A stretch of DNA of 63,037 nucleotides, the filler included, from Asterionella formosa (taxonomy: Eukaryota): the NCBI GenBank assembly GCA_002256025.1. It is 8 parts of 8 records of this genome, joined end to end, with 100 filler letters (N's around TTAATTAATTAA, not from the genome) between each part and the next. Parts side by side here need not be neighbours in the genome. Positions count along the whole stretch, not along the records: positions 44,094 to 52,792 come from NKIB01011794.1; 7 more parts are not named here. One strand, written 5' to 3'. The translations under genes and the position numbers were made by a program. Below, in pieces: positions 5,501 through 61,229 of the stretch. The stretch's first letter is position 1. Each line of letters opens with the position of its first letter. A model generated the notes under the pieces. It worked only from the letters and a program-made list of their open reading frames with translations, was not told the origin of the DNA and made no database searches.

Positions 5501-5808
5501 GATAAGCTCAGTTTTCGATATTTTTTCTTGCTACGGTAACGATAACAGTAATAATTACAACAACAAAATGAAGAAATGGTTCAACGATGTAAATCCATTT
5601 GTATAACCTCTGATCATAAAAATAAAATAAAAACTTCAAATCGAGAATCAGATCATCGCCTTATCGTCACCTCCGGCTGCCAAAAACGCTTGACGTCTTT
5701 AAATTTTATTAAGCAATGGCCAAGGACATTTTGAGCTCATGATCCATTGTTGATATTTTCAAGGCGTACCTGGCAACAAGTAGTAAGTACCTGGTACCTG
5801 GTACCTGG

Positions 5809-16867: not shown

Positions 16868-17271
16868 TGTTGTCTATATACCGGGTATATAGATATACTA
16901 TAAAATGAACGAATGTAAAGTGACTGTGCTGTGCAACAAACAAAAGTGGAGTTACACTAAGCGAAGTCCTGTAATCTAACGATTGTACTGACAATAGATT
17001 CCGGTACTACACATATGTATGCATCTTTGATACTTTGCTACTACCGTTATCTGCTACCAGTACTATTATAGGAGCGAGTATTTTCAGAAATAAGCAAAAA
17101 GCCGATCTAAAACTACCGGTACCGGACCGGTTATTCTTACGGCAATGTGCAGGTAAGAATGACTATTTTAGTCATTCGTTGCAACATACTGCTAGACATT
17201 TAGGTCTTTGGGTCATTATAGAATGGGTGGTAATATATACCGGGTATATCAACATCACTGTATCTACTGTA

Positions 17272-17367
17272 CCTGCAAGTTGCGGTAATTTTGCTGATAC
17301 TAAAAGTTTAGCTATCTTTATCCGATATTAAATTTTTAGTTTAAGCAAAATTACCGCAACTTGCTGG
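17272..17367. mobile_element. 96-bp TA-flanked MITE, copy 1
   Basis: TA|CCTGCAAGTTGCGGTAATTTTGCT...AGCAAAATTACCGCAACTTGCTGG|TA, a 24-bp TIR with one mismatch. Further copies at 53622 and 60900. Confidence 0.85.
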
Positions 17368-17564
17368 TATTCCATGCATACATATGATAGAAGAAAAATA
17401 ACAAGTATATTTATATATAAATATACTCATTGTGTAAAAAGGATGATACCAGGTACCGGTTGTATGTCAAATACAGGAAGTATGCACAGTGCACAAATTA
17501 GTGACACTGGCATCATTCCCTTCTCCCACACAACATTGCTACCAGTATATACATGGATAGGGAG

Positions 17565-19965: not shown

Positions 19966-20442
19966 TGATCACGTAATATAGTGATGATCAGGAATGCATG
20001 CATGATTCTCTGATCAAATAAGTAACGTGATTCAGATAATATATAGATTTATTCTAGTAAGCATTTTGATGTATTCAACTAATTCATGTGATCAATTCAA
20101 AATCAACTAGGCTTATTTACGTGATTGTCACTTCACGTAATACGCGGCTTAGATGTACACAGTGTTAAAATTCATTATTTATGTCTGTTGTTACTTTTAT
20201 TCTGCATTAGCTATTATATCAACTAGTACCTGCCTTCCATACAAAATCTTGGATGCTTCTTTGCTGCAGCCACCATCGGACGATTCTCGTACATCCTGGT
20301 ATTATAAAAATGGCTGATGGAAACGTGGGGCGAAACGACGACTGTTTGTACTACAACCAAGGAAAACACTACCGGTACTGGTACTGGTATACTGTATCGT
20401 TTCCTCGCAATAAAGAGATGTAGCAGACCAAACAGACCACGT

Positions 20443-20648
20443 TGAGCGATCTTGCGCATCAATACAGATGTATATAGGGTTAGTGTTATTTCATACATGT
20501 ATCAGAATTCAGTAATGAGAGAACTCGACTAGTGCTAACCCACATTGTATACTTTGGTGTCGACTTATTAGAGAACGAGTTACACACAAGGATTAACAAA
20601 TAAGATCATATATTCAACAAATACTTCTACTTCTAGTTAGATACTTCA
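20443..20648 (+). mobile_element. Solo gypsy LTR (206 bp, TGAG...TTCA)
   Basis: Full-length match to the reverse complement of the 3' LTR at 21262-21456. TG...CA termini, followed by CCAGG. Confidence 0.85.
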
Positions 20649-21261
20649 CCAGGTACCAATCTCACCTTGTTTGTCCGAGACGTGTTATTGCATACTCAAC
20701 ATCATCTACAGGTACCGGTACCAACGTCACCTTTCTTGTTTGTACGAGAAGAACGTGTGATTGTTGCGTACCAGGTACCTGGTACCTGTACCGGTACCAG
20801 TAGGTCTATGGTGGTGCAATGTGGTGCAGCGACAATATGACGTCAGCAAGGAGTGCCTTTGTTAAAAATTCATTACCGGTAGAAACCTATATATGTGATA
20901 CAAAATGCTAGCAATACTTTATTAGTACCGGTATGTCCTATTACATGTGTGTGCCGGGTAGTCTACGGCCGTTGGCTACTACAAAATTCATATCTTATAT
21001 GAATCTGATCGTGATCCTATGTTGAAAATATCACTATGGTAGTGCAGGCCGTAGCACGGATTTTATGTATGGATAGTCTGATGGTGCAATTTTGGTTTCT
21101 CTAAGTAATAGTGGTGCAATCGGTGGTGCAATTGTGGTGCAAATGCCAATGGGCAGTTGAATTTACATATAGTTTCCTCTTTTTCAACCCTGTTTGGGAA
21201 AAGTCCCGGTATTCCGTTTCTAATCATTCTACCCTCTACCTGTAGTTACATTGGTACCAGG

Positions 21262-21456
21262 TGAAGTATCTAACTAGAAGTAGTAGTATTTATTGAATAT
21301 ATGAGCTTATTAATTAATCCTTATGTACAACTCATTTCCTGAACTGACATCAAAGTATAGAATGGGTGTTAGTCGAGTTCTCTTATTATTGAATTCCGAT
21401 ATATTTGATATATTCCTAACCCTATGTACATCTGTATCACTGTGCAGGATTGCTCA
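21262..21456 (-). repeat. 3' LTR (195 bp) of the gypsy element
   Basis: Starts TGAGCAATC after the PPT (21457-21465), ends AGATACTTCA, then CCTGG. Confidence 0.85.
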
Positions 21457-23378: not shown

Positions 23379-23429
23379 TGCTTGGACCTTTTTAGACCAA
23401 GGTTTCAGTCCATTAGGAATTAACCAATA

Positions 23430-35820: not shown

Positions 35821-36195
35821 GGTATATTGTTGATTGTTGTTGTTCTCAATTGATGTTCATAATTGACTGAGTCCTCGGAACCCCGCTATATTTGTTAAGA
35901 AGATTTATGCATTTTTTCGTCATCTGGAAGAAACATTGTATCATTGCTCAGGCCTTCCGGTTTGCATTCTACCAGTAGGAGTACCTGGTACCTGGTACCT
36001 GGTACAGGAGTATTCAACGCAAAAGACAGACATACCGGTAGTAGTCCCGAAATTCTGCTACCATACGTATGTACCAACCAGTAACTGGGTACCAGGTACC
36101 TTAGTACCGGTACTACCGGTACAGCTATTAGCAGTTGATATCATGCATGTACTGTCAATCTGAATCCTACGATGGTACAAAATTGAACGCTGTTT

Positions 36196-36330: not shown

Positions 36331-36624
36331 GAGTATCTCCTACATTCTCCCCATTTTCCACGCTTCTGCAGCAGCAGCTCCAGTAACAGGTACCAGGTAC
36401 CAGTAGCAGACAATGGTGGACTCGGAGTAAGTTGTTGGTCGTCAAGGGACGAATTCCCCTGAATTCGCTCTTAACTCTTTTTTGCACAACATTCGCACTT
36501 AAAATTGCGCATAAAATCCACAGCCACAGGGCGCTTGTTGAGATGTTCCAGATCTCCTTGATAGTACTTAAACGTCTAGTGTCCAGTACTACTAGTTCTC
36601 CTCTAGCTAGTTTTCGACAACACT

Positions 36625-37152: not shown

Positions 37153-38327
37153 ACTTGTGTTTTGCCTTCATTGTCGGAAATGTATTCAGCAACCTTTGTC
37201 GTAACCACACCATCTCGCATACCGGAAGCCTTGACCTTCGTCTTTCTTGATTCACATCCATTGCAATAAAACTTGAAAGCGAACACTACCAAAGCCTTGA
37301 CACAATAACTCTTTTTCAGAACCAACACAAAAAAGGCCAAAACGAAGATCCATTTCTCAATATTCCCAACCAATTCTCCAAACATTTCCCCCAACACAGC
37401 CCCTGACACGAAACTCAACACTTCCGCCAAATCCAACCCCAAGATCGACCCATACGCCAAAAACTGCGACAACAACGAAGCCCCCGACAAGACAAACACA
37501 AAGACAAACACATACCCGAGCAATTGCACCAATAACGTGGTCCCCGACACATATGCCAACAATTGCGACAAGAACGAAGCCCCCGACAAGACGAACACAA
37601 ACATATACCCCAACACTTGCACCAACAACGTGGTCCCCGACACATATGCCAACAAGTGCGACAAGAACGAAGCCCCTGACAAAATGAACACAAACACATA
37701 CCCAAGCAATTGCACCAACAACGTGGTCCCCGACACATCCCCCAACACTTCTGCCAACCCGTCCTGTGACGCATCCAGTATTTCCGTCAATGTTGGTATT
37801 TGAATGAACAAGATCAACTTGTCATACTGATAGTAGTTAATTGGTAACCACCAATCCAAGTTAGTCCATGTACTGTTAAGAAAAGCAACACATTTGATGA
37901 AATCGTGGTGGACTCGGCGAAGGAACATGAGCCACTTGTCATTGTCATAGTATGCATACCGGTAGGCATAGTACCGCCAGTAGTCAAATGCATGCTCCTC
38001 CCAGACAAGGAGTTCACTTGGTTGGTTGGTGGTGGTTGTTGCTGCTGCTTTCTTGATAATGCTCCTGGTAGCAGGTGGAGCACTAATAAGCAGCAACTCT
38101 GTTCCACTTGTCTTCCAGCTGAAATTCTCGGAAAGTATAATGGATTCAATGGGCGTTGCACTTCTGCACTCATGCACCCATTGCATGCCAAGCCTCTCTG
38201 CAAAGTCTTGTTGAAAAGCCACATTTTGTTCCCCGAACTTGGAGTTCGAGTAGGCATACCGTGGCGAAGACAACATTGACTTTCCTAGAAAGGTCAAGGC
38301 GAAAAGTAAAAGTAAAAGTAGATTCAT
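37143..38327 (-). CDS. Unknown signal-peptide membrane protein with 31-aa hydrophobic repeats
   Basis: ATG at 38327 gives MNLLLLLLFALTFLG. Three copies of VSGTTLLVQ(L/V)LGY(V/M)FVF.LSGAS.LS..LAY, plus a further TM segment. Confidence 0.6.
   Translation of the reverse strand: MNLLLLLLFALTFLGKSMLSSPRYAYSNSKFGEQNVAFQQDFAERLGMQWVHECRSATPIESIILSENFSWKTSGTELLLISAPPATRSIIKKAAATTTTNQPSELLVWEEHAFDYWRYYAYRYAYYDNDKWLMFLRRVHHDFIKCVAFLNSTWTNLDWWLPINYYQYDKLILFIQIPTLTEILDASQDGLAEVLGDVSGTTLLVQLLGYVFVFILSGASFLSHLLAYVSGTTLLVQVLGYMFVFVLSGASFLSQLLAYVSGTTLLVQLLGYVFVFVFVLSGASLLSQFLAYGSILGLDLAEVLSFVSGAVLGEMFGELVGNIEKWIFVLAFFVLVLKKSYCVKALVVFAFKFYCNGCESRKTKVKASGMRDGVVTTKVAEYISDNEGKTQVCM
37460..37760. repeat. 93-bp (one 99-bp) coding tandem repeat, 3 units
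   Basis: TGCACCAAYAACGTGGTCCCCGACACAT recurs three times at 93-bp spacing. Confidence 0.9.
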
Positions 38328-41300
38328 TTTATTCGTTTCTGTTGAGCACGGAAACGGAAACGGAAATGCAAAGACATGGAACGACGACAATGGAAGAAGT
38401 GGCTGGTGTGAGCAAGAGCAAGCGAATTGGAATTGGAACTGCAGTTTCTCGTCTCCTTCCCATGATGAGGGAAGCAGAGCGAGTCAAAAGCAGGAAGGAA
38501 CGAACGAGACGAGACGAGCCGAGCCGAGATGAGACGAGCAATTCAATTGACAAAAACTTACATTATTTGTTTTTTGTTTGGCATAAAACACTGTTCGTCG
38601 TATTCTATGAGCAAAACCGTGGCAAAGCAAAAATTGAATAGAGTCAAGGCAAGCAAGAGGCAACATCAAATCGAAACGGCCACGGTTCAAGTTGATATAT
38701 ATGGACAATGGACAATAAATAGCTCGAAATACTTCAGTCTAATAGGCTCACCTATTTTATCTCTGCTATATCTATACTGTACTAACCGGTATGGGTCTCT
38801 TCTCCAGATTGGTTATGACTGATGATATTTTTGGACTGCTTGTAGATATATATTCGGTATATACATACATCTTTACCGTTTACATATTTGCAATGCACAG
38901 TACATGGTATATATTTATTCGCACATAGACCATGATATTCTATACCAGGTACCTGATACCAGGCACCTGGTATCAGCCTACCCGCGGTACCTGGTACCAG
39001 GTACCTGAATTTGTGTACAGCGATATACACACCGGTATCTGGTACCTGGTACCTACTTCCTTTGCGTCGTCATTCTTGCTCTATGACATGTGTATTTTAG
39101 TGCCGATGCAAGAAAAACAGTGCCGTCATGGTGGGCGATCTGTTCAAATGCATCTTGACAAATCATCGTGATCAGTAGTCTAATAATACCGGTAATAATA
39201 ATGAGAATATTATTTCCGGTACACTTTTGCACTTTCGTTCATAAAATAAATAAAAAACCTAAAAAATATAAAGTACGAACAAACCATCCACATGCGCCAA
39301 TAAAATGAATCCACCACGAAATCTTGATGCTTTTTTAATTATCGCATCTAACGCTTGTCTTATTGCGTGCTTGTTCGTACAATCCCTCATGATGAGCGAG
39401 CGATTTCCACCACAACTACGAAAAAAAGGCTGGCTCCCTGTCCAACCTCGACGGTCTCCTGCTAGGAATACTTCGTTGTTACGGGTGCCTCTTGCTTTTT
39501 TCATCGACTTAGTGGGAACCGGCGAGGTTCGGGAGGGACCTTTGACTTTTGGAGGACGAATACGGCGGCGAGTGGCGAGTGGGCTGCTGAGCCGGTATTC
39601 TGCAGTGTGAGCATGACGAAAAATGACAGCAAGTGATGCACGGCGCAATGGGTGACCGGTGGTAACTGAGATTCAAGTCAACGCAAACGCGAACGCGACG
39701 GAACAGAACGGAACGGGTTGCTGATGTGAGTGCCGCGCTTGTGCTATTGAGCTTTGGTTGTGTCCACTATGGAGAGTGGCTGGTTGTATTGCTTCTTCCG
39801 ATCAATGGAAAGGAAGCAAGCAAGCAACAGAGCAGAGCGGAGTGGCAAAGTCAAAGTCTCTTTTGTGATTGCTTATTGAATCCGTTATTTGTTCTAGCCT
39901 GACTCTCTCATGCCCTATCTTGACAATCAACTCTAGCGGACCAGTTTTACCGAACAAGAATCGAAGAATGCCTCCTCCCAAGTCTCAATCTTCCCTTCGC
40001 TAGGTGTAGGTGCTGCACCTGCCTTCTGTACAAGACACAAAGAAGAATACCACCATACAACCATACCACCGGCACTGCACTGTACCACAACCTACAGATG
40101 GATCGTTGTCCAGAGGCGTGCGCATCGGACCAGTATGGAATTTATAACAAAGCACTTGTACCAAGGAATGGGGTCTTGATGATAGTAGGAATGTCCTCCT
40201 TCTTGATTTTCCCTTCCCCACTGGTGGTGTTGACGTTCCTGCTAAAGTAGCAAGCTTCGGAATCAGCTGCTTCCAAGCTCTGGAAACAACTCAATAAACA
40301 AGTTAAATTGGCTAGTTATATTATTGTTGGACCAGTGCGATGCGATCCATAAGCTTTCCCTTTAAAAGAATGCTCTGTCTTGCGAATTTGGCCACTGCAC
40401 GCTACGCACTAACATTCTTATTAAGGTCCTGATGGTCACACATGGCATTGGGAAGCAAATTCTATGCATAAACTAGGTACTAGCTATCTTTGGCTGGAAA
40501 TCGACTCACAGGGATTTCAGATGCATTGGCGGTTTAATTTGCTTCCAGTCCGAAAGCAGCCATGCATCTTGATTTCAGGATTTCAGTAATTGTGATTTGG
40601 TGTCACTCCCTGAGAAGTGATGTCATTGTTGCTCCAGTTGAAGCGACTTGTTTATTTTGTCACAAAATCGAATCACACACTTTCCAGATGAGGTAGCTAT
40701 ATTGTGCTTGTTACATGCTGCTAAACTGCGATTAATGTTGGTATGGCTTTGGCATGGAAAACCAGCATGCTCATGTAGCGATAAATCGAAGCGAGCCTGT
40801 CAAAGCCCATAATGTAGATTGCAGATTGCAGATAGCTATTTTTCCTCATGGCACTGGCTGCATTTCCTTACCAATATTGCAGAGCTTTCGGTTTTTTGAC
40901 AAGCAATGCATTCCTTTATAGAATACAGTTGGAAATGATGATTTTGCAGGGTGTAGGCAAGCAAAGCATGTCAAGAGTTGGAAGTTCAGACTGTTTGCAA
41001 GTTGGAAGTTCAGACTGCTGTTTACTACACAAGCCTAAGCCGCCTAAGCCTAACCATAAGCTTAACCCTAACAGAAGCAAACATTGGAGGCAAGTGCATT
41101 TTTCTAGAAAGTATTTGTGACAACGACGATTTGCTGGCGGGCCAGAGAAGCACAAGGCAATGGCGGATTTTAATTGGGAAGCACAGAGAAGTAGCAGTAC
41201 ATGTCCGTCTGCCTATCAGCCAGCCAGTATCCTATCCAACAACAAGGATGGGCCGCATGTTTCGATTATCAATTCAAAAACTTATTTATTGTCATCAACA

Positions 41301-41613
41301 TTACAGAATACTCTGCATGTGCGTACCTTCCCCTAAGGGTCGTTCTTATCATTTTCGATTTGGTATCATTTTTTTTGAAAAAGTATCATGTAACGGCTAC
41401 TCGATTTAAACCGAAAAAATCCATTCTCCACAAAAATAGAAATGAAATTGTATCACCAAAAAGTATCACGAAAATTCAACGGTTACGGGCTGGCTACAAT
41501 CATGTGCATATCCCTCCAGGCTTCCCTCCAGACTATTTCGATAATTTTCCATTACTAAAACCATGTAGGAAAACTATGCGTATTATGTAGCAGTATGGAA
41601 TATATACCGTATA

Positions 41614-42248
41614 CATCATTGTCCTGGACCCCCCCTATGGTTGCTGGACCCCCCTGTACATTTTTCTCGAGGTGGAACCAAACACCCAATAATTTTCTTG
41701 TCATAGACAAAGTAACGTGCTATAATTCTTTTTGTCCTCGTAGGCACTAGTACATAATTATTTAGCTACCATTTTGCGATTCTTTTGTACATACAAAACA
41801 CAAGAGACGACAGGTAGTGGCTGTGAGCAGCTGGAGAATCCTTCATGATGTTGTCGCAACCTTGACCATGACGAAAATACGAATTACCTCCACGAAAATA
41901 GAGAACGACGCTTTGCTACTTGCTGCCTGTATTAAGAACGACATGGAAAATACAATCGTAAAAGAAGTAAAGTAATAACACTAATAATGACAACGAAAAT
42001 TGAGATCGCCGATAACAACATGAAGTCGCGTTTTTCTTGCGAGGTGAAGAACTCTCTCATTTTTCACAAGACGGAAATAATTGTCATATTAATACATCTT
42101 AGAAAAATGTGCGCTATCCTGTAGAACTAAAGAAATTTCCTTAGGTCTATTATAAGGGAAATCTCTTCATTGTCCTGGGCCCCCCTTAAGTAAAATCAGT
42201 CAAATTCAGTCACGGCAGTGTACATTGGGGGGGTCCAGGACAATGAAG
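41614..42248. mobile_element. 635-bp non-autonomous TA-flanked TIR transposon (Tc1/mariner-type)
   Basis: TA|CATCATTGTCCTGGACCCCCCC...GGGGGGGTCCAGGACAATGAAG|TA. Extra internal TIR-like copies at ~41642 and ~42165. No ORF. Confidence 0.82.
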
Positions 42249-43317
42249 TATATGATAGCTGACATACCTGCTTAATTCTTGATTTGCCATGAGTCAACAC
42301 AGACATGCAAGATCGTCTATACACTTCTTCTTACACTTCTGCTTGCCATCATCCCCTTTCAGGTTTACAAGCAATCAGCACCATGTCATCATTGTCAGTG
42401 CACAATGACGAACAAGTGGATCAACATTGGACTGAAGAAGGTGCTGTGAATATCAACGATGGCAATGATGATGATGGCAATGAAGTCATCAGTAATCAAT
42501 TTTTTGATAATGAAAACAACCATCAATTCTTTGATTACGATGACCATGATCAATTCTTTATCCTTTGTCATCTGGCTCTGGAGGCTGAAACGTACTGTAC
42601 AGGAGGTAAACCGTAATGACAGGCCAATACAGTTAGTTAGAGAATTGCTCTTGCAAACAAGTGCTCCAAGTTGAGATATCATCACAGATTGCCAATTCAA
42701 TAAAGAATACGCCAACTGTCATGCAACAACTTACAACAAATGCTAGACGAGCCTGATATATTATAGCTCCGGCTGGTACAGTACCACGCCGGTACCATAT
42801 ATTCGTTCGTAGGCCAACTTGAGCGTACCCAGGCTACCACCAAACAGAGAATACCACGCTGGGCTTCACGCCGAACAAGTAGCGGCTCTCTGTACAACTG
42901 GTAGCCTCATTACACGGGAAACCAGATCTGGTCATATGCCAGTAAACAATCACTTTCATCAATCGCATTTCTTATGTGCTTGATGGGGTTTTTTACCGGT
43001 GTGTCTAATGAAAATTCATTATATTACATTTCTATAATACATTTAATAACATTAGTAACACTGCAAACACCACGGCAAACACTGCGAAACTACGTAGAGT
43101 AGAGTACTTGACAATTTACTTGCACTTGCGCCAAACCTTGCCTTCACCGTGCGAATTCCTTTTTCATACTGGTACGCATAGCGCAACAGTAAACCAACAT
43201 CCTACTTCGATATGCACGAGCCACAACAGCAAGGCACACCTTGGCAGCATATTTCGGGACAACAGCCTACACTGATACAGATTTTACCTCCCAATCACCT
43301 CTCAGACCCATGAGAGA

Positions 43318-43993
43318 ATGTCATGGCATTCTCATGTCAAGAAGCTGTGTCATGAGGACGCATTTGAAAAGACTTATAGAATGTCCCTTCGAGCCTTTAA
43401 GAAGTTGGTTTACTTGCTGGAGAGTGATGTCATTGGGAATTTCTCCAAGTGCGGTACAGCTACTCCCATTTACCCAGAAATTTTGCTGGCCATTGGCATT
43501 CGATGGTTGGCTGGAGGCAGCTACATTGACATTTGTCATGCCTATGGATGTAGCATAGCTTCAATCTATAGATGCCGAGATTTATTTCTTGAAGCCGTGC
43601 TTAACTGTGATTATCTGAAAATTATATTTCCTAAAACAAGGAGTGATTTGGTGAAATTGGCTATAGCCTTTGAACAAAAGGGTACAGAAGGGTTGATCAG
43701 AGGGTGTGTTGGTGCTATTGATGGTTTTTTAGCCACAATTAGTCGCCCCACGCTACGTGACTGTGGAAACAATCCAGGAGCTTTTTATTCTGGACATTAC
43801 ATGACTTATGGTATCAATGTTCAGGCTATCTGTGATGTTGAGAGTAGATTTATATTTTTTGGGGTGATTGCTCCTGGACGATGCAGTGATCAAGTTGCAT
43901 TTGAGAGAACTGCTCTACCCAACAAAACTGCATTATTTGATTCTGGTTTTTATCTTGTTGGTGATGCAGCATATACATTGTCAGATGTCATGT
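43318..43993 (+). mobile_element. PIF/Harbinger transposase (DDE_Tnp_4), uninterrupted up to the contig end
   Basis: FEKTYRMSLRAF, LAIGIRWLAGGSYIDI, GCVGAIDG, YGINVQAICD and YLVGDAAY. Confidence 0.9.
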
Positions 43994-44103: not shown

Positions 44104-46167
44104 TCAAAATTTCTCCCCTTCTAGCTTTAAATCGGTAACGAACCTATTCATTCTTCTACCCACACCTGCTAATAATCCATCGAATCTCTTGAATTCAAGG
44201 CTTTCTTTGTTTCGCAACTCTCGCCCGAGCTTGCGCTTATCCAGGCTCGCCTCAAGGAGTTGGTTTCTGGAGTACCCGAGTTTCATTAGTCGCTCTTCTC
44301 GCTCGAATCGTGACAACTTCAATTGCTGCTCCCCCCTCCGCCTCTCATGTTTATTTTCGAGGATTTCAATGTCATAGACTCGTTCTCTCTTGTACTTCCA
44401 ACCTAAGCTCAGACTCGGGCCATCTTCACATGACGGATTATCACCTAAAACTGATTCGTAGTCACGAACGTGGAGAGTGCTAAATGCAACTTTCCGGAAA
44501 GCTTTTGGTGGCTTTGATGGCTCCGCCCGGTTGGTCCTGTAACACAATCCTGTGGTATCGCAGTTTTTTTCGCCATCAATTTCAACTCTGTATTCCTCAA
44601 GTACTCCGGGATATTGAATACAAGCTGAAGTTCTGTCGGAGGAACTGTCCTGAAACACGCTACTGAAACCTGAGATATCTGACGAGTCAGATTGTTCATC
44701 ACCTTCAACTGTGGAGGGATCAATTGGAACAAGTAATTCATTTATTGGGGATGCTCCCGTTAGCCATTGTTGATGAAGCAATAGAAGACACTTTTGCACA
44801 GATTCGGGAAGAATGGAAAAAATCTCCTGTGCAGAACTACCGCTAACCTGCTGATCTGCCTTGATCGAGAGACTTTCAGGTTTGGGATGGTCAGTTGGCT
44901 TTTCAGGAGCAACAATATGAAGAACCCCTAGTTCTGTTACGGAAGTAGGAGACTTCTGTCGACATGAATGAATATTTGATGGAGTGGCCTCTGAACAACA
45001 TAGAGACACTGGGCTACTTTCGTCTTGTATCATTTTTTTGTTGTGTTGCACGTAGGTCGCTACCGAATGCTTCATTTCTGGGGTACCTTTCGATCGTTTG
45101 TTCTCCTCAATCAGGTCGAGAATAGAACTGACAACTGCTTTCTCTGCTGATTCTTTCTTCTTCAATCTAAGCTCATTTCTTCGCCGACTGCTCGTTTTGC
45201 TTTTCTTTCGGTCCTTATTGTCCTTGCGGAGTTTACGTGTGCTGTGCTTCCTAGTATCATTACTATCCAGGATCGACTGCATTGGTAGAGATTCCTCGCT
45301 TTTGATGGGATACCCGCGATTTTCGAGCGACTTGGCGGATCTGGCTTTCTTACCCGTACGCGTCAACTGCTTCGCATGAGGAGCTACTGATGAAAGTATC
45401 TCTGACAAAAGTCCTGTCATGTCGGATTTTGCAGACTGGTCGCAGCTGCCACTGTAAGCTTCCATCAATTCTCTGCTATTCGATATGGATTCAACTTTGC
45501 CAAATTCCCCACAAGAATATTCTTGATCTTCGTATAGCAATGGCATCAAGGCGTCAATGTCGTCGTCCTCAGCTTCGTCTTCGGGTATAATTGAGGCAGC
45601 CAATAGCTCTGACAGAAGTCCAGATAGGTCGGAGTCTCGTGTTAAAGCTGATCTCTGACAGTAAAGATGGTCGCCTTCGCTTCTAAATGATTCATCTCGC
45701 ATCAAATGCGCTGATAGAGAGTCACTTTTGGTTTTCTCCTTCTGGCTTCGAAATGACGAGGAGGCTCGTCGGGAAAAGCCTCCAAGCGAGTTTTGAGATC
45801 CACCTGCCAACAGTTCGGAGAGCAAATCTGACAACTCAGAGGCAGCAGAGGATTTGCTATTGAGGGATCTCTCATCTGTGTCTCTGGCATTAGCAATGTA
45901 TTCTGTTAGTTTGTAAATTACCTCTTCCGACGAAGCCGTTGAGTCTTTCCGAAGCGGAAATGTATTAATACATCCAACGCCACGATGCGAATTAACTCGT
46001 TCCGAATCGATCAACCGCGACCTGATATCATTAAACGATGCATTTGAAGAATTGAAGAGATCAAATCCCAATGTCTTCTGTTCATTGAAATGATCATCTC
46101 CTAGCACATCGAAACTACCAATGTCTGGACGAGTTTTTGGACTTGAGCTGACATGAGAGTTGGCCAT
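44104..46167 (-). CDS. Unknown Ser-rich, largely disordered protein with a C-terminal 'KVxF...GDNPS..GP.L.LGW' domain
   Basis: Long open frame, first ATG at 46167. C-terminal RKVAFSTLHVRDYESVLGDNPSCEDGPSLSLGWKY...EREERLMKLGYS. Basic NLS-like patch. Confidence 0.75.
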   Translation of the reverse strand: MANSHVSSSPKTRPDIGSFDVLGDDHFNEQKTLGFDLFNSSNASFNDIRSRLIDSERVNSHRGVGCINTFPLRKDSTASSEEVIYKLTEYIANARDTDERSLNSKSSAASELSDLLSELLAGGSQNSLGGFSRRASSSFRSQKEKTKSDSLSAHLMRDESFRSEGDHLYCQRSALTRDSDLSGLLSELLAASIIPEDEAEDDDIDALMPLLYEDQEYSCGEFGKVESISNSRELMEAYSGSCDQSAKSDMTGLLSEILSSVAPHAKQLTRTGKKARSAKSLENRGYPIKSEESLPMQSILDSNDTRKHSTRKLRKDNKDRKKSKTSSRRRNELRLKKKESAEKAVVSSILDLIEENKRSKGTPEMKHSVATYVQHNKKMIQDESSPVSLCCSEATPSNIHSCRQKSPTSVTELGVLHIVAPEKPTDHPKPESLSIKADQQVSGSSAQEIFSILPESVQKCLLLLHQQWLTGASPINELLVPIDPSTVEGDEQSDSSDISGFSSVFQDSSSDRTSACIQYPGVLEEYRVEIDGEKNCDTTGLCYRTNRAEPSKPPKAFRKVAFSTLHVRDYESVLGDNPSCEDGPSLSLGWKYKRERVYDIEILENKHERRRGEQQLKLSRFEREERLMKLGYSRNQLLEASLDKRKLGRELRNKESLEFKRFDGLLAGVGRRMNRFVTDLKLEGEKF

Positions 46168-47049
46168 TTCTAACTCCTCTCGAACCACCAGATAAGCGAT
46201 CAATTCCTATTACCCTTTTGTTACCTCTTACGAAGGAGTAAGGAGCGATGCATATATTTGAAGTAACCGTTGAGCAATTTTGGCAGATTTCTCAAGGCAG
46301 AGTGCACTGATTGTGTTTTGTGGTTTTTGAGGCATTTTCTGGGCCAGAAAATAAATGAGGAACATGATATATATAGAACTTGCACCCAACGCGATTCTCA
46401 CGACAAAAGAGGACGACGAACAAAAGGGGACCGAGAACAAAAGGGCCCAAAGCAATACCGACATGCTGCACCTGATACATCTATTACCTGATTGTACCCT
46501 GGTACCTGTACCTAGTACCTGGTACGAGGTACGGACTATTCCGGAGTTCTAGGTACTCGCTTGTACCTACTCTGCAGTACCTGGTACCAGGATACTGGCA
46601 ATGCACTCCTGTTACCAGCACATACCAGCAATTCCGTTGATATCGCTGGTCTAACTGCACCACCGTACGTATCGACAGAGTTTCTTATTTCTTGATATGC
46701 ACATACGAAACGACACACGACGATGCGCAGATTGACATACATATGTAGCACTACACGGTATCTCAAGATTCAACGGCCACTGGGTGCATATGAATTCGCG
46801 ACTTCCGCGATCCGCAATTTTATGTATACATTTTGTACATGCATACCAGTATAAGACGACATATTTCTTCAATTTTTTTGTAATGTTTGGGTCAAAATTG
46901 CGTGACAACAACAGAATGAACTACAAAAATGACCTCACTTTCATCTAGTGGCCGTTTAGTCTAGGAATTCTGCTGCCTCATGATGTTTGCATAAAAATTA
47001 AAAATCATCTTTTTTACAGCCCATTCCTACTCCCCTTTTTCAAGGTAAG

Positions 47050-50775: not shown

Positions 50776-51329
50776 TTTTTCGTTATTGCGTAAACTTTCC
50801 TTTCTTGTCATGTGCTTTACTACAATATTTCTTTTCATGATGCAGGCATTGTTTGTTAACATGACAGAATGATTTCAAATGTATTTGCCAGGTATATAGT
50901 TATAAAATTTGTAAATATATAAATATATCAAGTGTCGTAGATTTATGAAAATCAAAGGCACTCTCAATATGGAACATCTGGTATTGTTGAGATGATCATA
51001 TTCGCATATACATAATTCAAAAATATTCAATGCACGATATGTCAAATGTTTTACATGACTTCGTGTACCGGTACAGTTTCTGAAATTTGCTTGCATCAAT
51101 ATTTTCTACGGCCGTTGGAACTAATTATTTAGACCATTCAATTGGTGTACTAAGTCATTACCCATTTGTATCATTATTTATACGCGAGAATTTTGGTAGC
51201 AAATTGTTTAAGCCCTTTTTTGGGCGGGAGTTCTTCATGTTTACCGGTACATCATACAACAATAACATTTTATCATATATATACAGAGTACCAGTAGCAG
51301 GTAGGAAGTGATATACTGGGGGTACCAGG

Positions 51330-51800
51330 TAGTCAGAGTACCAGGTAGTAAGCAAGCAACAGAACACCATATGTTCACGACTGTTGCTACTGCAGTGTGA
51401 CAGCAAATCATCATAGTTTTAGGATCGTATGATCATAAAATTGAAAAAGGATAGTCAGAGTAGTAAGCAAGCAACAGAGCACCATATGTTCATGACTGCT
51501 GCTACTGCAGCGGGACATTAAATCATCATATTTTTAGGATTGTATGATCATAAAATTGAAAAAGAATAGTCGGAGAAGTAAGCAAGCAATAGAACACCAT
51601 ATGTTCATGACTGTTGCTACTACAGCGTGACAGTAAATCATCATAGTTTTAGGATTGTACGATCGTAAAATTGAAAGATAGTAGTCAGAGTAATAAGCAA
51701 GCAACAGAACACCATATGTTCATGACTGCTGCTACTGCAGCGGGACAGTAAAGCATCATATTTTTAGAATTGTATAGTCGTATAATTGTAATTGAAAACA
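51330..51800 (+). repeat. 115-bp tandem repeat x4 with ABAB higher-order structure
   Basis: AAGCAAGCAA anchors at 51350, 51465, 51580 and 51695. Confidence 0.92.
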
Positions 51801-52892: not shown

Positions 52893-53621
52893 CGTTGTCC
52901 TGCAGCTTGTTGCTGTCGCTGGGAAATCTGAGCTTGCATCTGCTGTTGCAAGCGTTGCATTTCTTGCAGCTTCTGGAGTTGAGATGAGTTCATGGCACCT
53001 CCTTGCGTTGCTTGTAAGCTTACCCTCGTGCGATTTCCTGATCAAAGTATTGGAGAGTGACAATGATAAACCGAAAGTGTTGTCCGAACGACAGCAATCA
53101 AGTTTGATTGCCTTTCGCCACTTGCAGCTAGGTATTCGTGAAAAGCAAATACTTCAACTGTGTTCCAGTAATGAAAAAATGCCGTACATATATGTAGGGC
53201 CTGGTATGTGTTACAAATATTAGTCTGGCCTGAAAGAAAAGCGAGGGGTACCAGGGTCCCCAAAGCAATTGTGCTTGCTTCGAAAACAAGACAGGCATTA
53301 TCTATTACTATACAAACAAGGAAGGATTGACTTAACTGCAAAATCACGTAGAGCTTGTACCATCATATTTTCATTTGGCCCGTTGACCATCGAAGAAGAA
53401 GCGATTCGACTTTCTGTGGAGCAGAAATGAACATATTCATGTGTGAATATACTCCTAATCAATGTATTACAAGTTGAATTCACTACCAGTACCGGTACCG
53501 GTACCGTTACCAGTGCTGTACCCGTAGCTAGCAACCAGCACTACGAAATGCTCCGTACAAGGTGCCCGGGTACCTCTACTGTAGGGTACTAGGGGTACCA
53601 GTACCGGGGGGGTACAAGGGA

Positions 53622-53716
53622 CCAGGAAGTTGCGGTCATTTAGCTTAAACAAACAATTTAATATCGTTTAAAGATAACTAAATATTTGCTCAGCACAATT
53701 ACCGGAACTTGCAAGG
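53622..53716. mobile_element. 96-bp MITE family, copy 2 (diverged)
   Basis: CCAGGAAGTTGCGGTCATTTAGCT...AGCACAATTACCGGAACTTGCAAGG. Confidence 0.75.
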
Positions 53717-53733
53717 TGCCAGATACCACCAGG

Positions 53734-54898
53734 TGAGCGATCTCGCGCATCAATACAGATGTATATAGGGTTAGTGATATATCATATATACCGGTATATG
53801 AACTGAGTAATGAGAGAACTCGACTAACCGGCATGACAAAATTAAATGCTGCAATTGCTACACAGTTTTTATCATCCTACATTAAAATCAAGAGGGGAAC
53901 ATATTGTAATCATATGTGAAGCATGTCAAAACGTACAAAATTACCGGGTGCTGGTTTTGGTGAATTTCCACCAAGGAATGCAGCCATTGTTATTCCAATG
54001 GTCAGAAGTCACAGTGGATTTAATTGGTCCATAGAAGATAACAGTGGCTGCACAAGCAATTGGATTTTGTGCTCTGACTTCAGTTAACACAGTCACAAAT
54101 TTACCAGACATTTCATGTATCAATAAAAAGACATCAGAATATATTGCGATGAAATTTGAAAATGATTGGGCCTGGCTGGTTAGACAGGTATCTACTTCCA
54201 GAACATTGTATACATGACAATGGAGGTGAATTTACTGGAATTCCTTTCATACACATGTTAGTGTTGAATGGAATTAAAATATCAGTCAAGACTCCACAAG
54301 AAAAGAATGCTATCTGTGAACGTTTACATCAATCTATCAGTAACAGTCTACAAGTTATCATGTTAAAGGCTCATCCTCCAATCAAGGAATTTCAAGTTCA
54401 GAATATCGTGGATACATGTTTTGCAGCTGAATCATATGCTGCTCGAGCTACTATTTATAGTACATGGCGTATTTCACCAGGGAATATGGCTGGGTTTTCC
54501 AACATGATATGATATTAAATATTCCGTTGATTACAGATTTGCAATTAATATTGGAATATCAATGTCAACAAGTGATAATTGAAAAATGTCGACATCGGGC
54601 TAATTTCCATCATCGTTCTTGTGATTACAAAGTTTGTGACGAGATTTTAATCCAATTGGAAAATCCTACCACCTTGGATGACCGTGGACAAGGTCCTTAT
54701 TCTATTATTCAAGTATATGCCAATGGTACAGTTACTTTTCAACAAACCATGCATATTACGAAACGAATTAATATTCATTGCATCAAACTAACCCTTATTG
54801 TATACTTTGGTGTCGACTTCGAGAACAAGTTGTACTCAAGGATTAACTAATAAGCTTTTATATTCAACAAATACAACTACTTCTAGTTAGGTACTTCA
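53734..54898 (+). mobile_element. Gypsy derivative: LTR 5' half, integrase pseudogene, LTR 3' half, with CCAGG target duplication
   Basis: CCAGG|TGAGCGATC...GTACTTCA|CCAGG. The internal 53830-54786 encodes a broken integrase (CEACQ, VTVDLIGP, HDNGGEF, NAICERLHQ, GPY) homologous to 21483-22460. Confidence 0.88.
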
Positions 54899-56617
54899 CC
54901 AGGTACCAGTACCAGGTAGACCACCTGTTACAGACACACTTCATGTACCACCAGCGAGTACTCGTACCAGGTACCAGTACCTTGACCAGTACCTGGAACT
55001 GGTACTCCGCATGCCTGCTACCGTAGTACATGGGCCGCTATTAGGAATCTTGACACTCAGAATTGAGAATAGGGGGAAGCCCCCAATCGCAGTAAGATTA
55101 GGGAAACTGGTTTTTTCAGAAAGTCTTTCTTTAAAATTTGATTTTGATAAAATTGAAATTATTGGGCCAGTGCGAAACCGTTAGAAATTTCTAAATGTCG
55201 AGGTACTATTACCATGGCTGGAAGTCTAATTTGAGTGCCTGCTGGCGCCGCATTTCTGTTTTGGCAAATGACTGCAACTTGCTGGTACCCGGTTCTATAC
55301 CGGCACTGCAATGACATGGCTGCGCCTGTCATTCCACTTGTTCTCAAGACACTTTGATTGCCCAATTCGTATTAAAACATGGAGCACTTCAAATGTACAA
55401 ATTTGATGGTGATTTAGATGATTGTTTTTGGTGCTAGGAAGCTTACAAGTCGCAGCATTAGTAGGGGAGCATTGACCACTTTGGAAGGCGGCAGATCATG
55501 CTGGTGCTGTAGGAGGGCAAGAACCCGCCCATTTTTCTTGCATCGCTCTTACCACTACTATGCAAGACCAGCATGTGGGACCGTTCTTAGCCAAGTATAG
55601 TCAAGTTATATAGACATAAATATATTTGTAAACATTTGACCTACTAAATTAAACGACACCTCCTCTCCACGTGTGTTAAATCAATTTTACTTGTGTTTCA
55701 TGGTTGGCTGCAGCAGGCAATTACTTTTGTATCAGCATGCACATCTGACCACTGACCACAATAAAATCTTGAATATTGAAATACATCATTTTGTTAACAT
55801 TTTTATGTTTTAAAGTTCAGACAAATCAAAGTAATTTTGGGTTATGCTATGAGGCTTTGCCCTGTGGCTTTGCCCTGTTAATAAACAAGTTTCGTTGAAC
55901 AACACGTTTCAACCATTGTTTGATGACCAATAATCAACAAAGTTAGGTGTCAAGATATCATGAGAAAGTTTCTTGTCCTTTTAAGTATCATTGTGTTGCC
56001 AGGCATGAATTCCTCCTCCAAACTGTCATTTCGGCATATTAACAGCAATAACTAGCAAGCAAATATTTATATAGTAATCATGTTCATAGTGCACTGGTAC
56101 TAGCATATTTCTAGTTTTGTCGTCAATGCCTTGTCCATGGCCCAGATAAAGTGTGGCCACGGAGACAGGCATGAAATGTAGTAGCATATCACCTGGTACA
56201 GTAATGAAGCTTTTTGTATTTTGCTGCTGAGAATTGGAATTATTCTTGAATACTGCAGCAGTAATCCCAATTAACTGATTTTCGATTTACTGTGGGCAGA
56301 TATGACTGTTAACCTAGATTATTAGTCCCAACTTGATCGAGGGAGTATTTGAGGTGTTCAGGCCACTAATTGATGTGACCAGAAAGCAAATCCTGCCTTT
56401 CTTTTCACCATAATAAATCAGGTTCCTTTCCCAATATACAGAAGGAATTTAAATGATTTGAAGAACAATTTCACTGCATGCTATGCACTTTGAGGTCAGC
56501 AGATCCTAGAAATTGAAGGCTTGGATAATTGCATGTATATGGAATCTGAGCCCTTGATGTGCCCATTGACTCAACCAAAATCCCCTGTTAGATGGCCTGG
56601 ACCATTCGACAGCATCC

Positions 56618-56820
56618 AAAAATCTGGTGCGAAGCTGGCATCTATGGAAAAGTCGACCACTAAAGGTTCAGAATTACTATTATCTCTTGCCATCAACATT
56701 TTCTGTCTTCCAACGCGAAAATCTGGTGCGATGTTGGCATCAAAGGAAAAAGTCGGCCTCTAAAGGTTTAGAATTACTGTTCTTTCTTGCCGTCAACATA
56801 TTCTGCCTGCCAACGCAAAA
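56618..56820. repeat. ~100-bp tandem duplication spanning the phosphatase stop codon
   Basis: AATCTGGTGCGA...TAAAGGTTYAGAATTACT...CCAACGC occurs twice. Confidence 0.8.
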
Positions 56821-57616
56821 GTGCTCTTTTCATGAGACCGTTTAGCTTGCAGACAGACCTTTTCGGTTTGATTCCTTGCTCAAAAGCTTCTTGCCATGTT
56901 TTATACAAGCCAGCCTTGACCAAGCAGGCACACATTACAGTTGTACTCCGACCACGACCATGAGCACAATGAACAATGACATCCCCCTTCTTTCGAGCTT
57001 CAACGGCAAATGTAGCACACTCTTCCAACTGAGCCGGAGTTGCAGGGACTCCATCCCAGGTCGGGCAAGACAAATACAATTGTGATCGGTCAATGCATCG
57101 CTCAGGAAATTCTACAGTTAAATCAATAATGCCGCCCCAATCTCTGTCGAGATCATTGGCATAACAGCCTCCAACCCACCAACCCGGCTGGACCTCGGAA
57201 GCAACTGGAACCCTCACACTCTTGGTTCTGCCGTCATCTGTCTTGACCTTGGTATTCCCTTGCAATGTATGCACATATGTGTATAGTATTGTGGGCAAGT
57301 GAAAGGGAAAATAAAGGAAGTACGACCAAATTGGGATTTGCCCAGTCTTTCTATTCTTTCCGATCATACCCATACCCCATTCCAGCTTGAATAAGATTGC
57401 GATCAAGCCGTTCAGAGCTGCTGAATATCCTAAAATAGCAGCAGGAATGAGGCGAGTGAACGGCCTGACTGTAGATCCAGTCATTTCCGCCAATGACCGA
57501 GCCGCTTGACTGACAACCTCATTTGAGCCAGATTCTCCAACGAAGAACGAATAACCTGCATACGATAATGCCGATAGGCCCACATACTTAAGATAAACAC
57601 CGTGAACAGCCCCCAT
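56774..57616 (-). CDS. Membrane-associated dual-specificity phosphatase (CX5R), YnbD-like architecture
   Basis: VIVHCAHGRGRSTTVMCACL P-loop, IIDLTVEF and PTWDG (general-acid loop), with N-terminal hydrophobic segments. ATG at 57616. Confidence 0.87.
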   Translation of the reverse strand: MGAVHGVYLKYVGLSALSYAGYSFFVGESGSNEVVSQAARSLAEMTGSTVRPFTRLIPAAILGYSAALNGLIAILFKLEWGMGMIGKNRKTGQIPIWSYFLYFPFHLPTILYTYVHTLQGNTKVKTDDGRTKSVRVPVASEVQPGWWVGGCYANDLDRDWGGIIDLTVEFPERCIDRSQLYLSCPTWDGVPATPAQLEECATFAVEARKKGDVIVHCAHGRGRSTTVMCACLVKAGLYKTWQEAFEQGIKPKRSVCKLNGLMKRALLRWQAEYVDGKKEQ

Positions 57617-60011
57617 CTTCAAAGGCTAACGCCAAACAGAATGGATTTGGGTAACTAGGTTGGATAATCACACACCCAGAGCATTGAAATAGAAGGGTAC
57701 TGGTCTGTTTGTATAGTTCCTGGTACCTGGTACCAGCTGCGTTTATGATTACCTACATGAACATATAAAATACAAAGTCTTCAAACTTCAACGCTTTCGA
57801 GTTGGCACGCCATCACTTTTGCTCCATTCTGTGCATACGATCACTTTGGCAGATATGGCCAAATGTTTTGATTTGGCAGATAAAGTATTATTTGTTTACC
57901 AGTGTTTATTTAGCCAAGTATAAAGGCGAGTTTAAAAGAGACTACTGCAGTACTTTTGGTTGACAGCACCGAATATACCGGTATACCGGTACCTGGTAGT
58001 ATACAGTAGTACCTGGTTCTCACGCATGAGGCGAAATCAGGTATTTTTAATTGATCGAAAATGCGGAAAATGTTTGAATTTCACTATGATAAATCTTGTG
58101 TTGTCAAAATGACGATGGCGATCACCAATTTCTTCCTGGATAATAATAATTCATAATCACTTTTTTGGATATGCTCAATCATATTATTGTCTAGGAAGTG
58201 AGCAACTGTAATGGCTCGAAGACAACTTGTGTGTAGTGAAATCCATAATTTGATACATTCACATCCTTGACTCAATTGGTACCAGTCCCGGCTCCTGTCT
58301 CTGCTGACGCTTCTTCACCAGCTGCTTCGCCAGGGTTGTATGGCTAAGTAGCCTTCATGACTTGAATTAGGTCAGCCATGCCATAAATAAATAAAAACCA
58401 AGGCGCCAGGAGAAAACCTATCCAGCCGCTTTGCCCGCCTGCCCCATCGATGTGGGGTGCTTGGGGGGCATCATGGGAGGATTCGAACTCCTCCCACCAG
58501 TTCACGTGTTCAGGAATGTTTTTGAGGCACCCCGTCCTCCAGTCATGTCCCAGTGTCCGGCGGGGTTCAAAGCACGAAAATCCAGTACGGAAATGTCTAG
58601 TACCGTCAATGATATACCGGTATTTATTTTAGCATAGAACAAATATTGCTTTGCCTTGCTGGTAGTCTAGTATCTAGCTACCGTATCAGTGCATAGTCTA
58701 ATCATTGTTTCATCATACATGCTGGTAGTAGCCAACATGGTGCAAAGAGTCGCTTTGCTCATGAGCATATGATGCCCTACCTGGTATTTATGTGTCCCTG
58801 GTACCTGGCTACCTGGGACGTTGCAGTACAGGGTAGCCCTGAGACTCCGAGTGCATACCAGTATATATAAATAAAGACTTCTTTGTATGGGGCATGGAGC
58901 AGCAGCCATGGAGAATGCATGAAAGAACCAAAATGGAATGGATATGACATGGTACTGTTCTTACATAAAGACTACAAATTTTTGTTAGTTGCCAATACCT
59001 GTATTAATAACTAAAACACTCTGCTATGAATTTGTCACGTCCTGTAAATGGTGTGAAGTAGGAACTGTTCCACTTAGTATCAGAAACTCCTGGGTTCTTT
59101 TCTATCCACCATAGCAATTCATCAGCTTTAAGAGAACCCTTGAGAATACGAATGGACCTGTTGATCCCTAATTGAAAATTCCTAGCAAGCAATTCTGCAA
59201 CCAGATTCTCCATGTGATTTGGAGTTGTCACTTTCTTCTTTACATCAATAAAGCGAACCACCATGCCTGTGATTAATGCACCTCTAATCCTACCACGTCT
59301 GCAAATAAAAACCTATCATATTTCCATGATGCATTATAGGATTGTGATCATCTGATCATAATTTTTCGTTATATCATCTAATAATTTTGATAAATGCCCT
59401 TGTAATTTAAATAATAACCCTTCTGACTACATATATCTAATTATTACATGTATTGTTTCTATTAGATTCCTGTATTCGAATTTCTTGGTAGGATAATGTA
59501 CCAGTTCAAGTAATGTAATTTGGCTCGTCATTTCCATCCGTCATCACTCTGATTTTTGCAACAACAACGAAATTCTAGCGATGACTAGTGGAATGATTGT
59601 TTGCGATAACGACGTCTTCAATTGTTGGTCATGTGATCATTATATCTTTGAGTAATCGTCATGTGCAGTGAACCTTTGTTCATAATCATACAATTAAGAG
59701 TTTACAGGAGAGAAGAAATCATTCGAACTCGTAATGGTTCCGCACACAGTGTACATTGTGAATCCGTTTCGTCGACCACCAGCATTACAATCTCGCCAAT
59801 CAACCCGTAAACAAACACATTCTACTTGTTCTCGTTGACATTTTCAATTCTCACATGATACTACATCTACTATTGAGATTCAGCATAGAAGGAAATACGA
59901 AAATGTAACAGACTACTGTCCACATAGCTATAGTTATAGAATGATTCTGATTACAATTTCTTTTTCATGTCGCTCGTTTCTGCATTTGGCATGCTGTACT
60001 TGTATTTAATA

Positions 60012-60435
60012 TTGAACTTGTCCGCATCTTTGATACCATCAAGAGAGCGAAAGCAAGTGGCTCTCTTCATTGTTGTTTGCTCGTAGGAAATATTTGATAT
60101 CCATATCGTCATTTGTTTGTTGGAACTGTCCGTTGCCTCAAACCTGCTTGGCGTGTGTGTACACACACTGCCGACTTGTTTTCATTGGTAGCTATGTTGT
60201 TCTTGTATTCACTGTTGAACTTTTCCGCATCTTTGTTACCATCAATAGAGCGAGCGACAAGTGGGTCTCTTCATTGTTGTTTGCTCCTGGAACAGTCGGT
60301 GTCCGTGTATCAATAGAGGGACAAGTGTCCTTCATCATTGCGGTTTGCCGCTGGAAAAATTGGTACCTGTGGTATCGTCATTTGCTCGTTGGAACCACTG
60401 TCTGTTGCCTCAAACCTGATTAGCGTGTGTGTATG
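60012..60435 (+). repeat. Diverged ~200-bp local duplication
   Basis: TTGAACTT.TCCGCATCTTTG.TACCATCAA...GTTGCCTCAAACCTG.TT.GCGTGTGTGTA occurs twice. Confidence 0.75.
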
Positions 60436-60899
60436 AAGGATTTAATTTTAGAGGCTGCTTATGTTAAGTATACTTCAATTAGTCATTTTAGCTATTATTT
60501 AGGATCTATTGGTGCATTCTTGACATCATTTTATTCTAAACGACTAATTTATTTAACTTTTATATCCAAGCCTAATGGAAATAAGTCTGTAATAATTTTT
60601 GCTCCTGTTTCTTCTTATAAAATTTGTCTTACACTTTTTTAAGCTGAAAGCTCCATTTAGCGATATACATTTGTTTTTTACTCTTAGAAGTTTGTGATTG
60701 AGTACTCTGACTCAATATTCTGGTTTTAACCCTACCTCTAAACCAGGGTTGAAATGCATGATCCTTTAGTGGTACAGCACCCTCGTATCCTGGTACCGGA
60801 AACAGATACCAGGGTTCCAGGTACCACACCACCCTACCGGTATGATGTATGGAGGAATAAACATAGAATTCCACGTGCCGATGAGGAGGAACATAAGTA

Positions 60900-60994
60900 C
60901 CAGCAAGTTACGGTCATTTTGCTTAAACTAACATTTTAATCTGGGATAAAGAAAGCTAAATCTTTCGTTTGAGCAAAATTACCGCAACTTGCAG
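60900..60994. mobile_element. 96-bp MITE family, copy 3
   Basis: TA|CCAGCAAGTTACGGTCATTTTGCT...AGCAAAATTACCGCAACTTGCAG|TA. Confidence 0.82.
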
Positions 60995-61046
60995 TAAGTA
61001 CAAGTGAATGAGCAGTGCGAACTGTCAACGTCACTGGTGAGTTTTC

Positions 61047-61210
61047 ATTGGTTGAGTGATTTCAAACGGTTTCCCGCGCTTTGTCGCGATACACACGTAA
61101 AATTTCTCGCTGAAGGGCGATTGTTGTCGTTTGTTTGCCAAATCAGCCCGTTCTGAACAGTCATTCATGTCACATAATAAAACAGGTCCGCTTTCCAACT
61201 AAGGCCGTTG
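61047..61210 (+). promoter_or_regulatory. Candidate cell-cycle promoter module of the Aurora kinase
   Basis: Reverse CCAAT 61047-51, reverse CHR (TTTGAA) 61061-66, MSA/Myb core AACGG 61065-69, E2F TTTCCCGC 61070-77, E2F-like 61103-10, and reverse AACGG at 61148 and 61205. Confidence 0.55.
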
Positions 61211-61229
61211 ATACATTCGGATCAATAAG

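Follow-up and report, generated by a model that had tools for sequence, protein, structure and literature searches.

Short TA-bounded palindromes with CCGG or CCWGG cores recur in genomic DNA of the diatom Asterionella formosa, and the isolated copies are probably excision footprints of TA-targeting, non-autonomous elements of the Tc1/mariner type with ends CCW...WGG. We consider this the best explanation because units were seen as insertions at TA, because a resident MITE family has matching ends, and because MITEs and units lie close together.

Composition of the window

The window, by which we mean the whole stretch of 63,037 bases that was analysed, is made up of eight genomic segments of about 8.7 kb, separated by N44-TTAATTAATTAA-N44 spacers, and contains two masked stretches besides the spacers. 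Its GC content was 39%, with a CpG observed/expected ratio of 0.75. Long uninterrupted ORFs encoded housekeeping-type proteins (RRP12-like, an ABCG-type transporter, an LRR protein, GT61, Dus, a galactosyltransferase and a dual-specificity phosphatase), and mobile-element coding sequence comprised one Ty3-like retroelement and one Harbinger-type DDE transposase fragment. Segment 7 was present in freshwater or lake metagenome runs from 14 studies.

Enrichment of TA-bounded units

The window contained 24 copies of TACCGGTA and 24 of TACCWGGTA, against 0.29 expected in each case, and neither count was reached in any of 100 shuffles. Units were found in seven of the eight segments, the unit-free one being only 1.3 kb long, at an overall density of ~1.2 per kb. 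The recurrence of TA-bounded units across contigs, which a first-pass annotation of this DNA had described, was thus confirmed, and the eight tracts that it listed all lay where it had placed them. Among strings between consecutive TAs, the only strong outliers were CCGG (24 vs 0.42 expected), CCAGG (11 vs 0.12), CCTGG (13 vs 0.18) and CCAG/CTGG (13 vs 0.66 for CCAG). The flanks were specific too: TA stood on both sides of 24 of the 87 occurrences of CCGG and 24 of the 105 of CCWGG, with every other flank pair seen at most four times. As in a footprint, each short insert had a copy of the TA target at either end. The centre base of the 5-bp cores was T in 13, A in 11 and G in two (W 24 vs S 2). 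GGTACC occurred 52 times (6.3 expected in the window). Target context, compared across 17 isolated units, showed a weak excess of A at -1 and T at +1, and the sequence flanking units was unconserved.

The dominant one-mismatch variant was the CpG transition TACTGGTA/TACCAGTA (19 vs 1.4 expected), which we read as decay of unconstrained units; CCA+G joints would give the same appearance. The full 3+3 joint TACCATGGTA had no copy in the window. TACWGTA and TACATGTA, also reported earlier as recurrent, were indeed present, but their excess was weak (17 vs 7.1 expected, or 2.4-fold, and 4 vs 1.5, respectively), and we dropped them as extra footprint classes.

Two further words were recorded. TAGCTA was found 33 times (9.9 expected, with no count as high in 200 shuffles; for example at 6302, 9312, 32150, 48670 and 51997), scattered and unlinked to the CC..GG units (4/33 within 100 bp of one), and may constitute a second class of TA-bounded words. 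TATATACCGGGTATAT, with G at its centre, occurs twice in the same orientation (16877-16893 and 17236-17252), 360 bp apart on the upstream side of the GT61 gene, one copy being 24 bp from MITE M1.

Units as insertions at TA

In four comparisons of repeat copies, a unit was present as a private insert of 6-7 bp at a TA, with the TA duplicated, and in three of the four no unit adjoined the site. The features that enter these comparisons within the window are as follows.

51323..51331: TA-CCAGG-TA neighbour, 16 bp upstream of the unit at 51339
51339..51347: TA-CCAGG-TA unit, adding 7 bp that units 2-4 of the 115-bp array lack
51345..51775, + strand: 115-bp tandem array of 3.7 copies, compared internally
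53789..53796: TA-CCGG-TA private to LTR copy D1, in (TA)n context; copy C is without the insert
37220..37227: TACCGGAA, a 6-bp in-frame insert (+Ser-Gly) relative to the paralogous segment 36655-36769

Unit 1 of the array (51334-51353) reads CAGAG-TA-CCAGG-TA-GTAAGC, and units 2-4 are insert-free (CAGAGTAGTAAGC, CGGAGAAGTAAGC and CAGAGTAATAAGC), in agreement with the earlier description. The unit close upstream, mentioned there as a potential source for slippage, is real: TACCAGGTAGT is found 16 bp upstream and is common to the 51323 and 51339 units, so that the 51323 unit is a possible local template for this +7 event, which is the one case of its kind. LTR copy D1 reads TATATA-CCGG-TATA where copy C has TA repeats only. 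The claim that this insert is lacking in the other full copies therefore holds for copy C; copy B carries TACATGTA at the site and is ambiguous, since alignment within the (TA)n run is uncertain. For that reason TACATGTA of copy B, which is +2 and not +6 relative to C, was not counted as an independent scar. The coding paralogues read CA-TA-CCGG-AA-GCC (37220) and CA-TA-GCC (36655-36769), the unit being one mismatch off. The fourth event is a private +6 insert, CA-CCGG-TA, in an LTR of metagenome contig L002, the three window copies having CTTATTAGTT, CTTATTTGTT and CTTATTAATT. The ancestral site was a single TA in the paralogue comparisons. Scanning metagenomes with the LTR as probe yielded only two contigs (L001 and L002), neither with a MITE copy.

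We tabulated 85 indels in 5,391 aligned bases of the window; the 23 rows of at least 4 bp represent 21 independent sites. Two of these 21 were of the TA to TA-CCGG-TA type (LTR D1, and 37220-37227 with its one mismatch), to which the +7 of array unit 1 and the +6 of L002 add two events from outside the table. When TA-duplicating micro-insertions were recognised by eye, four of five had a CC(W)GG core. The fifth was TA-GTGC-TA, a private 6-bp insert in LTR B (20527-20540) that duplicates TA and has a non-palindromic core.

The same insert at unrelated sites, without a local source sequence, implies an external template. Since three of the four events had no neighbouring unit, first units cannot have originated by slippage alone, and the prediction by which the footprint idea might have fallen, namely gains only beside old units, was not borne out.

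A resident MITE family with matching ends

A palindromic MITE of about 100 bp is present in three copies in 61 kb.

17270..17369: MITE M1 including the TA duplications, TA-CCTGCAAGTTGCGG...CCGCAACTTGCTGG-TA, with 41-nt arms that are 90% complementary
60898..60996: MITE M2, TA-CCAGCAAG...CTTGCAG-TA, right end one G short
53622..53716: MITE M3, degenerate, with flanks GA and TG where TA is expected

The family is Stowaway-like in being short, non-coding and repeated in many copies, with terminal inverted repeats and a TA duplication. Read depth at the M2 bin was several hundred-fold above that of neighbouring unique bins in four runs. M1, at 100 bp with its TA duplications, has clean ends (TA-CCTGCAAG...CTTGCTGG-TA), as had been proposed for the family (TA-CCW...WGG-TA); M2, one G short, and M3, which is degenerate, depart from this form. 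Overall, MITE ends are CCT/CCA...AGG/TGG, with a CC start at five of six ends, and the third base is W, matching the W centre of the units. The unit cores thus equal the first plus last 2-3 bases of a resident TA-flanked family, as a footprint should, and the opposite outcome, cores that match no element termini, did not materialise. A unit is found 18-56 bp from each of the three copies (chance ~0.003).

A Tc1/mariner transposase was not found among 150 ORFs of the window (138 of at least 70 aa and 12 long ORFs), in which the only matches were to DDE_Tnp_4 (Harbinger type) and Ty3-like RT/RNase H/integrase. The DDE_Tnp_4 fragment (43276-43992, + strand) runs off the end of segment 5, and a faint second match (7632-7862, - strand) lies beside the masked stretch 6918-7437. 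Another terminal-inverted-repeat element (arms 41605-41639 and 42223-42257) was rejected as a source of units because its ends are not CC...GG. It spans ~650 bp (41605-42257), with poly-C-containing arms of 35 nt that are 89% complementary, and has a relative at 33841-34055 that is 75% identical.

Contigs from runs X1, X2, X6 and X7 were laid out on 52893-61590. At this contig level, where high-copy repeats dominate and the indels and joints listed belong to copies of LTRs and repeats, no site was resolved into occupied, empty and scar states in the four runs, nor was any in the two metagenome contigs. Contigs of three runs begin at the left edge of M2, consistent with the repeat that lies to its left. 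One X1 contig over 57876-58185 showed a net gap of six letters.

Stacked tracts and their LTR context

CCGG units were mostly isolated (17/24) and CCWGG units mostly stacked (19/24; Fisher p=0.001), a contrast that is new here. The principal tracts and LTR copies are listed below.

5788..5808: (TACCTGG)x3 tract, directly adjoining the 3' end of truncated LTR A, with the RRP12-like ORF 258 bp downstream
20370..20389: chain CCGG-CTGG-CTGG
20443..20660, + strand: LTR copy B, 218 bp, TG...CA, 3' end CACCAGGTACCA
20707..20802: two chains, one of them five units long (CCAGG-CCTGG-CCTG-CCGG-CCAG), located between LTRs B and C, whose ends face inward
21250..21456, - strand: LTR copy C, the 3' LTR of the Ty3-like element 21486-25161 (-)
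35982..36121: (TACCTGG)x3 with CCGG/CCAGG units, 85 bp upstream of ORF 35295-35885 (-)
36391..36405: chain CCAGG-CCAG, pairing with 35985-36010 as an inverted repeat of 26 nt
38943..39051: degenerate tract that lies upstream of ORF 37146-38483 (-)
46495..46586: degenerate tract, 297 bp upstream of ORF 44107-46206 (-)
53484..53503: chain CCAG-CCGG-CCGG, adjoining MITE M3
53728..53826, + strand: LTR copy D1 (5' part), bearing the private CCGG unit
54788..54908, + strand: LTR copy D2 (3' part)
54904..54979: units immediately after the 3' end of LTR D2
57976..57998: TATACCGG-TATACCGG-TACCTGGTA, with the dual-specificity phosphatase ORF (-) 351 bp downstream

Two of the tracts contain perfect (GTACCTG)3.3-3.6 arrays. 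Of 17 pairs of adjacent units, 12 differed in core; five were identical, against 3.3 expected if cores were independent. A microsatellite would have identical neighbours and gains only beside old units, and this pattern was not found. TA-sharing adjacent pairs were in large excess over a random choice of TAs across the window (17 vs 1.4 expected). When landings were confined to the clusters extended by 25, 50 or 100 bp on either side, 14.1, 10.5 and 7.0 pairs were expected, and 17 pairs were compatible with chance only for the extension of 25 bp (P=0.016 at 50 bp). The stacking excess, together with the contrast between CCGG and CCWGG, indicates that either the hotspots are very narrow or local growth has added to the heptamer tracts. 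The contrast would not be expected from a single random footprint process, and the earlier proposal that each cycle of insertion and excision writes one unit was not supported in its simple form: stacking exceeds random landing unless hotspots are only about 25 bp wider than the clusters, and the proposal is weakened further in that the sole +7 event has a possible template 16 bp upstream.

Several observations concern the LTRs themselves. The terminus of the 218-bp LTR is CACCWGGTACCA in all four window copies (5799-5808, 20649-20660, 21250-21261 and 54897-54908), so this near-unit has been copied by retrotransposition. Further units directly follow the LTR end in copies A and D2. A contig joint from 57998 to 53724, with CCTGG between, represents another genomic LTR copy whose 5' end abuts a tract. 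Such contacts may have arisen through integration into tracts or through growth that started at the LTR end. The 3' ends of LTRs B and C (20443-21456) face inward, 590 bp apart, with nine units in the interval. The inverted repeat 35985-36010/36378-36403 (26 nt, 92% complementary) is made of tract units and spans 367 bp with more units. The region 53728-54908 is a rearranged retroelement remnant in which an integrase fragment of 960 bp separates the 5' part of the LTR from its 3' part, and contigs in runs X1 and X2 fuse the D1 and D2 parts directly. The non-coding region 59273-60722, with internal repeats of 100-200 bp, had very high depth in all four runs (X1, X2, X6 and X7) and has relatives at L001:1453-1698 and L002:4869-6098, in L002 beside LTR pieces; it possibly represents the internal part of a non-autonomous LTR element.

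Position of units relative to genes

Unit density was 4.63 per kb in 600-bp 5' flanks and 1.46 per kb in other non-coding DNA, a difference of ~3-fold, with a depletion to 0.26 per kb in host ORFs and no units in the 1.9 kb of 3' flank covered. The 5' flanks, which make up 17% of the non-coding DNA, held 12 of the 28 non-coding clusters (p=0.0014), and nine of 12 host genes had units within 600 bp upstream. The distance from unit to ORF ranged from about 85 to 700 bp. Only two strict units fell within host ORFs, both of the frame-preserving +6 type.

Discussion

Alternative explanations

The bias to 5' flanks is what one would expect of a promoter cis-element, and it fits a regulatory motif equally well as it fits scars. 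The palindromes might be bound by a dimeric factor or might exclude nucleosomes from promoters, being kept upstream by selection and present in multiple copies because more sites give stronger function. The upstream excess (4.63 vs 1.46 per kb, 12/28 clusters and 9/12 genes, with none in 3' flanks) the palindromic form of the motif and the excess of GGTACC (52 vs 6.3) speak in its favour. Against it, units appear as inserts in LTR copies and in a coding paralogue and not as promoter point mutations, ORF distances are spread over about 85-700 bp, and 16 of the 28 non-coding clusters lie outside 5' flanks. Spacing between half-sites is variable, with CCGG and CCWGG equally common at 24 each, and the two spacings, together with unconserved flanks, count against a protein-binding site. 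CpG-decayed variants are near as frequent as intact TACCGGTA (19 vs 24), and a matching diatom motif was not found in the titles and abstracts of the literature searched. We judge a regulatory origin to be unlikely; the two readings are compatible, in that scars could later have been co-opted.

An ordinary microsatellite, with a palindromic unit of 6-7 bp multiplied through slippage in replication or local template switching and with isolated units left over from arrays that collapsed, would account for the two perfect arrays, for the stacking of 19/24 CCWGG units and for a +7 event 16 bp from an identical TACCAGGTAGT. It does not account for three +6 inserts at TAs that lack a neighbouring unit in any copy, nor for 17/24 isolated CCGG units, and the identity of the unit with MITE ends is left unexplained by slippage. 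The 12/17 unlike neighbours, in which TA, CC and GG are nevertheless kept, count against plain slippage, and we regard this origin as very unlikely. Units might also be written by some other TA-specific process of break and repair or by an unseen element family (for instance a TA-duplicating transposon of another kind or a domesticated transposase), the likeness to MITE ends being secondary and some units having spread passively inside LTR copies. In line with this, neither a transposase (in the window ORFs) nor excision (in the four-run layout) was seen, CACCWGGTACCA shows that a near-unit can travel at the end of all four window LTR copies, TAGCTA is in excess (33 vs 9.9) and a TA-GTGC-TA insert exists. 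Yet the CC/GG cores and the W centre are both what the MITE ends predict, all three MITEs sit in the same hotspots as units, and the LTR-borne near-unit is CA-flanked and covers few sites only; such a process appears improbable.

A proposed model for scar formation and tract growth

Enrichment, insertion character, the MITE-end match and the co-location of MITEs and units are direct observations. From them we infer excision, the positions of the cuts, the route of repair and the manner of tract growth. An element would insert at a TA and duplicate it. On excision, the transposase would cut the non-transferred strand 2-3 nt inside both ends, leaving TA-CC(W) on one side of the donor site and (W)GG-TA on the other, and end joining would give TA-CCGG-TA (+6) or, with a one-base overlap at W, TA-CCWGG-TA (+7). 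Landings would cluster in narrow hotspots, mostly in 5' flanks of genes, where scars would pile up and in time erode, mainly through CpG transitions to TACTGGTA/TACCAGTA. For the stacked heptamer tracts, one scar per cycle is too simple an account; they probably grow from seed scars by a local process, either microhomology repair in a shifted register or copying from a template inside the palindromic array. Of the interpretation given in the first-pass annotation, the insert character, the match to MITE ends and the W centre stand, and one unit per cycle is doubtful. The imperfect ends of M2 and M3, the lack of a Tc1/mariner transposase in the window and the missing 3+3 joint all weigh against the footprint reading.

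Comparison with known systems

Tc1/mariner footprints consist of TA, the first or last 2-4 element nucleotides and TA, and are end-joining products whose central W comes from the overlap of two 3' overhangs (PMC6943129). The units resemble the Sleeping Beauty footprints TACAGTA/TACTGTA in having TA on both sides, a core from the terminal 2-4 nt and a central W. They differ in that the cores are CCGG or CCWGG, which implies that the overhangs could form no more than a single base pair, and that this would require complementary third bases (A opposite T). Furthermore, they occur at ~1.2 per kb, stacked and concentrated upstream of genes, and are known from sequence comparison only. The MITEs themselves, ~100 bp long, non-coding, palindromic and near genes, with a TA duplication, are like plant Stowaway-type MITEs; here, in contrast, the host is a diatom, and an autonomous partner was not found in the window. 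Their ends, CCWGCAAGTTGCGG, presumably differ from the plant Stowaway consensus. Excision of Stowaway-type MITEs is reported to leave the duplication and short end sequences (PMC4561436).

In a comparison of Oryza sativa and O. glaberrima, only eight of 94 excisions left a bare duplicated target site, and the other 86 had flanking deletions, filler DNA or both (PMC4423477). Excision was there a significant source of small sequence change, as it may be here; unlike the mostly irregular rice scars, the putative scars in A. formosa are stereotyped, which would imply an unusually uniform repair. Microsatellites of 6-7 bp share with the tracts the short head-to-tail arrays, two of them perfect with three units; they differ in that neighbouring cores here are usually unlike, first units stand at isolated TAs and the unit matches transposon ends. 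In literature on the motif, on promoter motifs and on MITE and mariner footprints, we found neither the motif nor such scars in diatoms at the level of titles and abstracts. The mechanism is of a known kind; its density and location are unusual.

Implications

As a tentative and rather doubtful extension, we propose a footprint ratchet: MITE scars would seed palindromic GGTACC(W) tracts that are grown by microhomology repair at each break, the tracts would become landing pads for MITEs and for an LTR retrotransposon whose terminus mimics the unit, and this traffic would write, and perhaps tune, DNA upstream of many genes. The contrast between isolated CCGG and stacked CCWGG offers a testable handle on tract growth. 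If the footprint reading is correct, excision of one small transposon family would be a major source of small insertions in Asterionella formosa, having left a scar-like unit in about every kb, and some four per kb in 5' flanks, so that palindromic, CpG-containing sequence would be made right at transcription starts. The units would then be a legible history of transposition hotspots and a natural system in which to study end joining in diatoms, and would mark a concrete path from mobile DNA to promoter sequence and microsatellite-like tracts.
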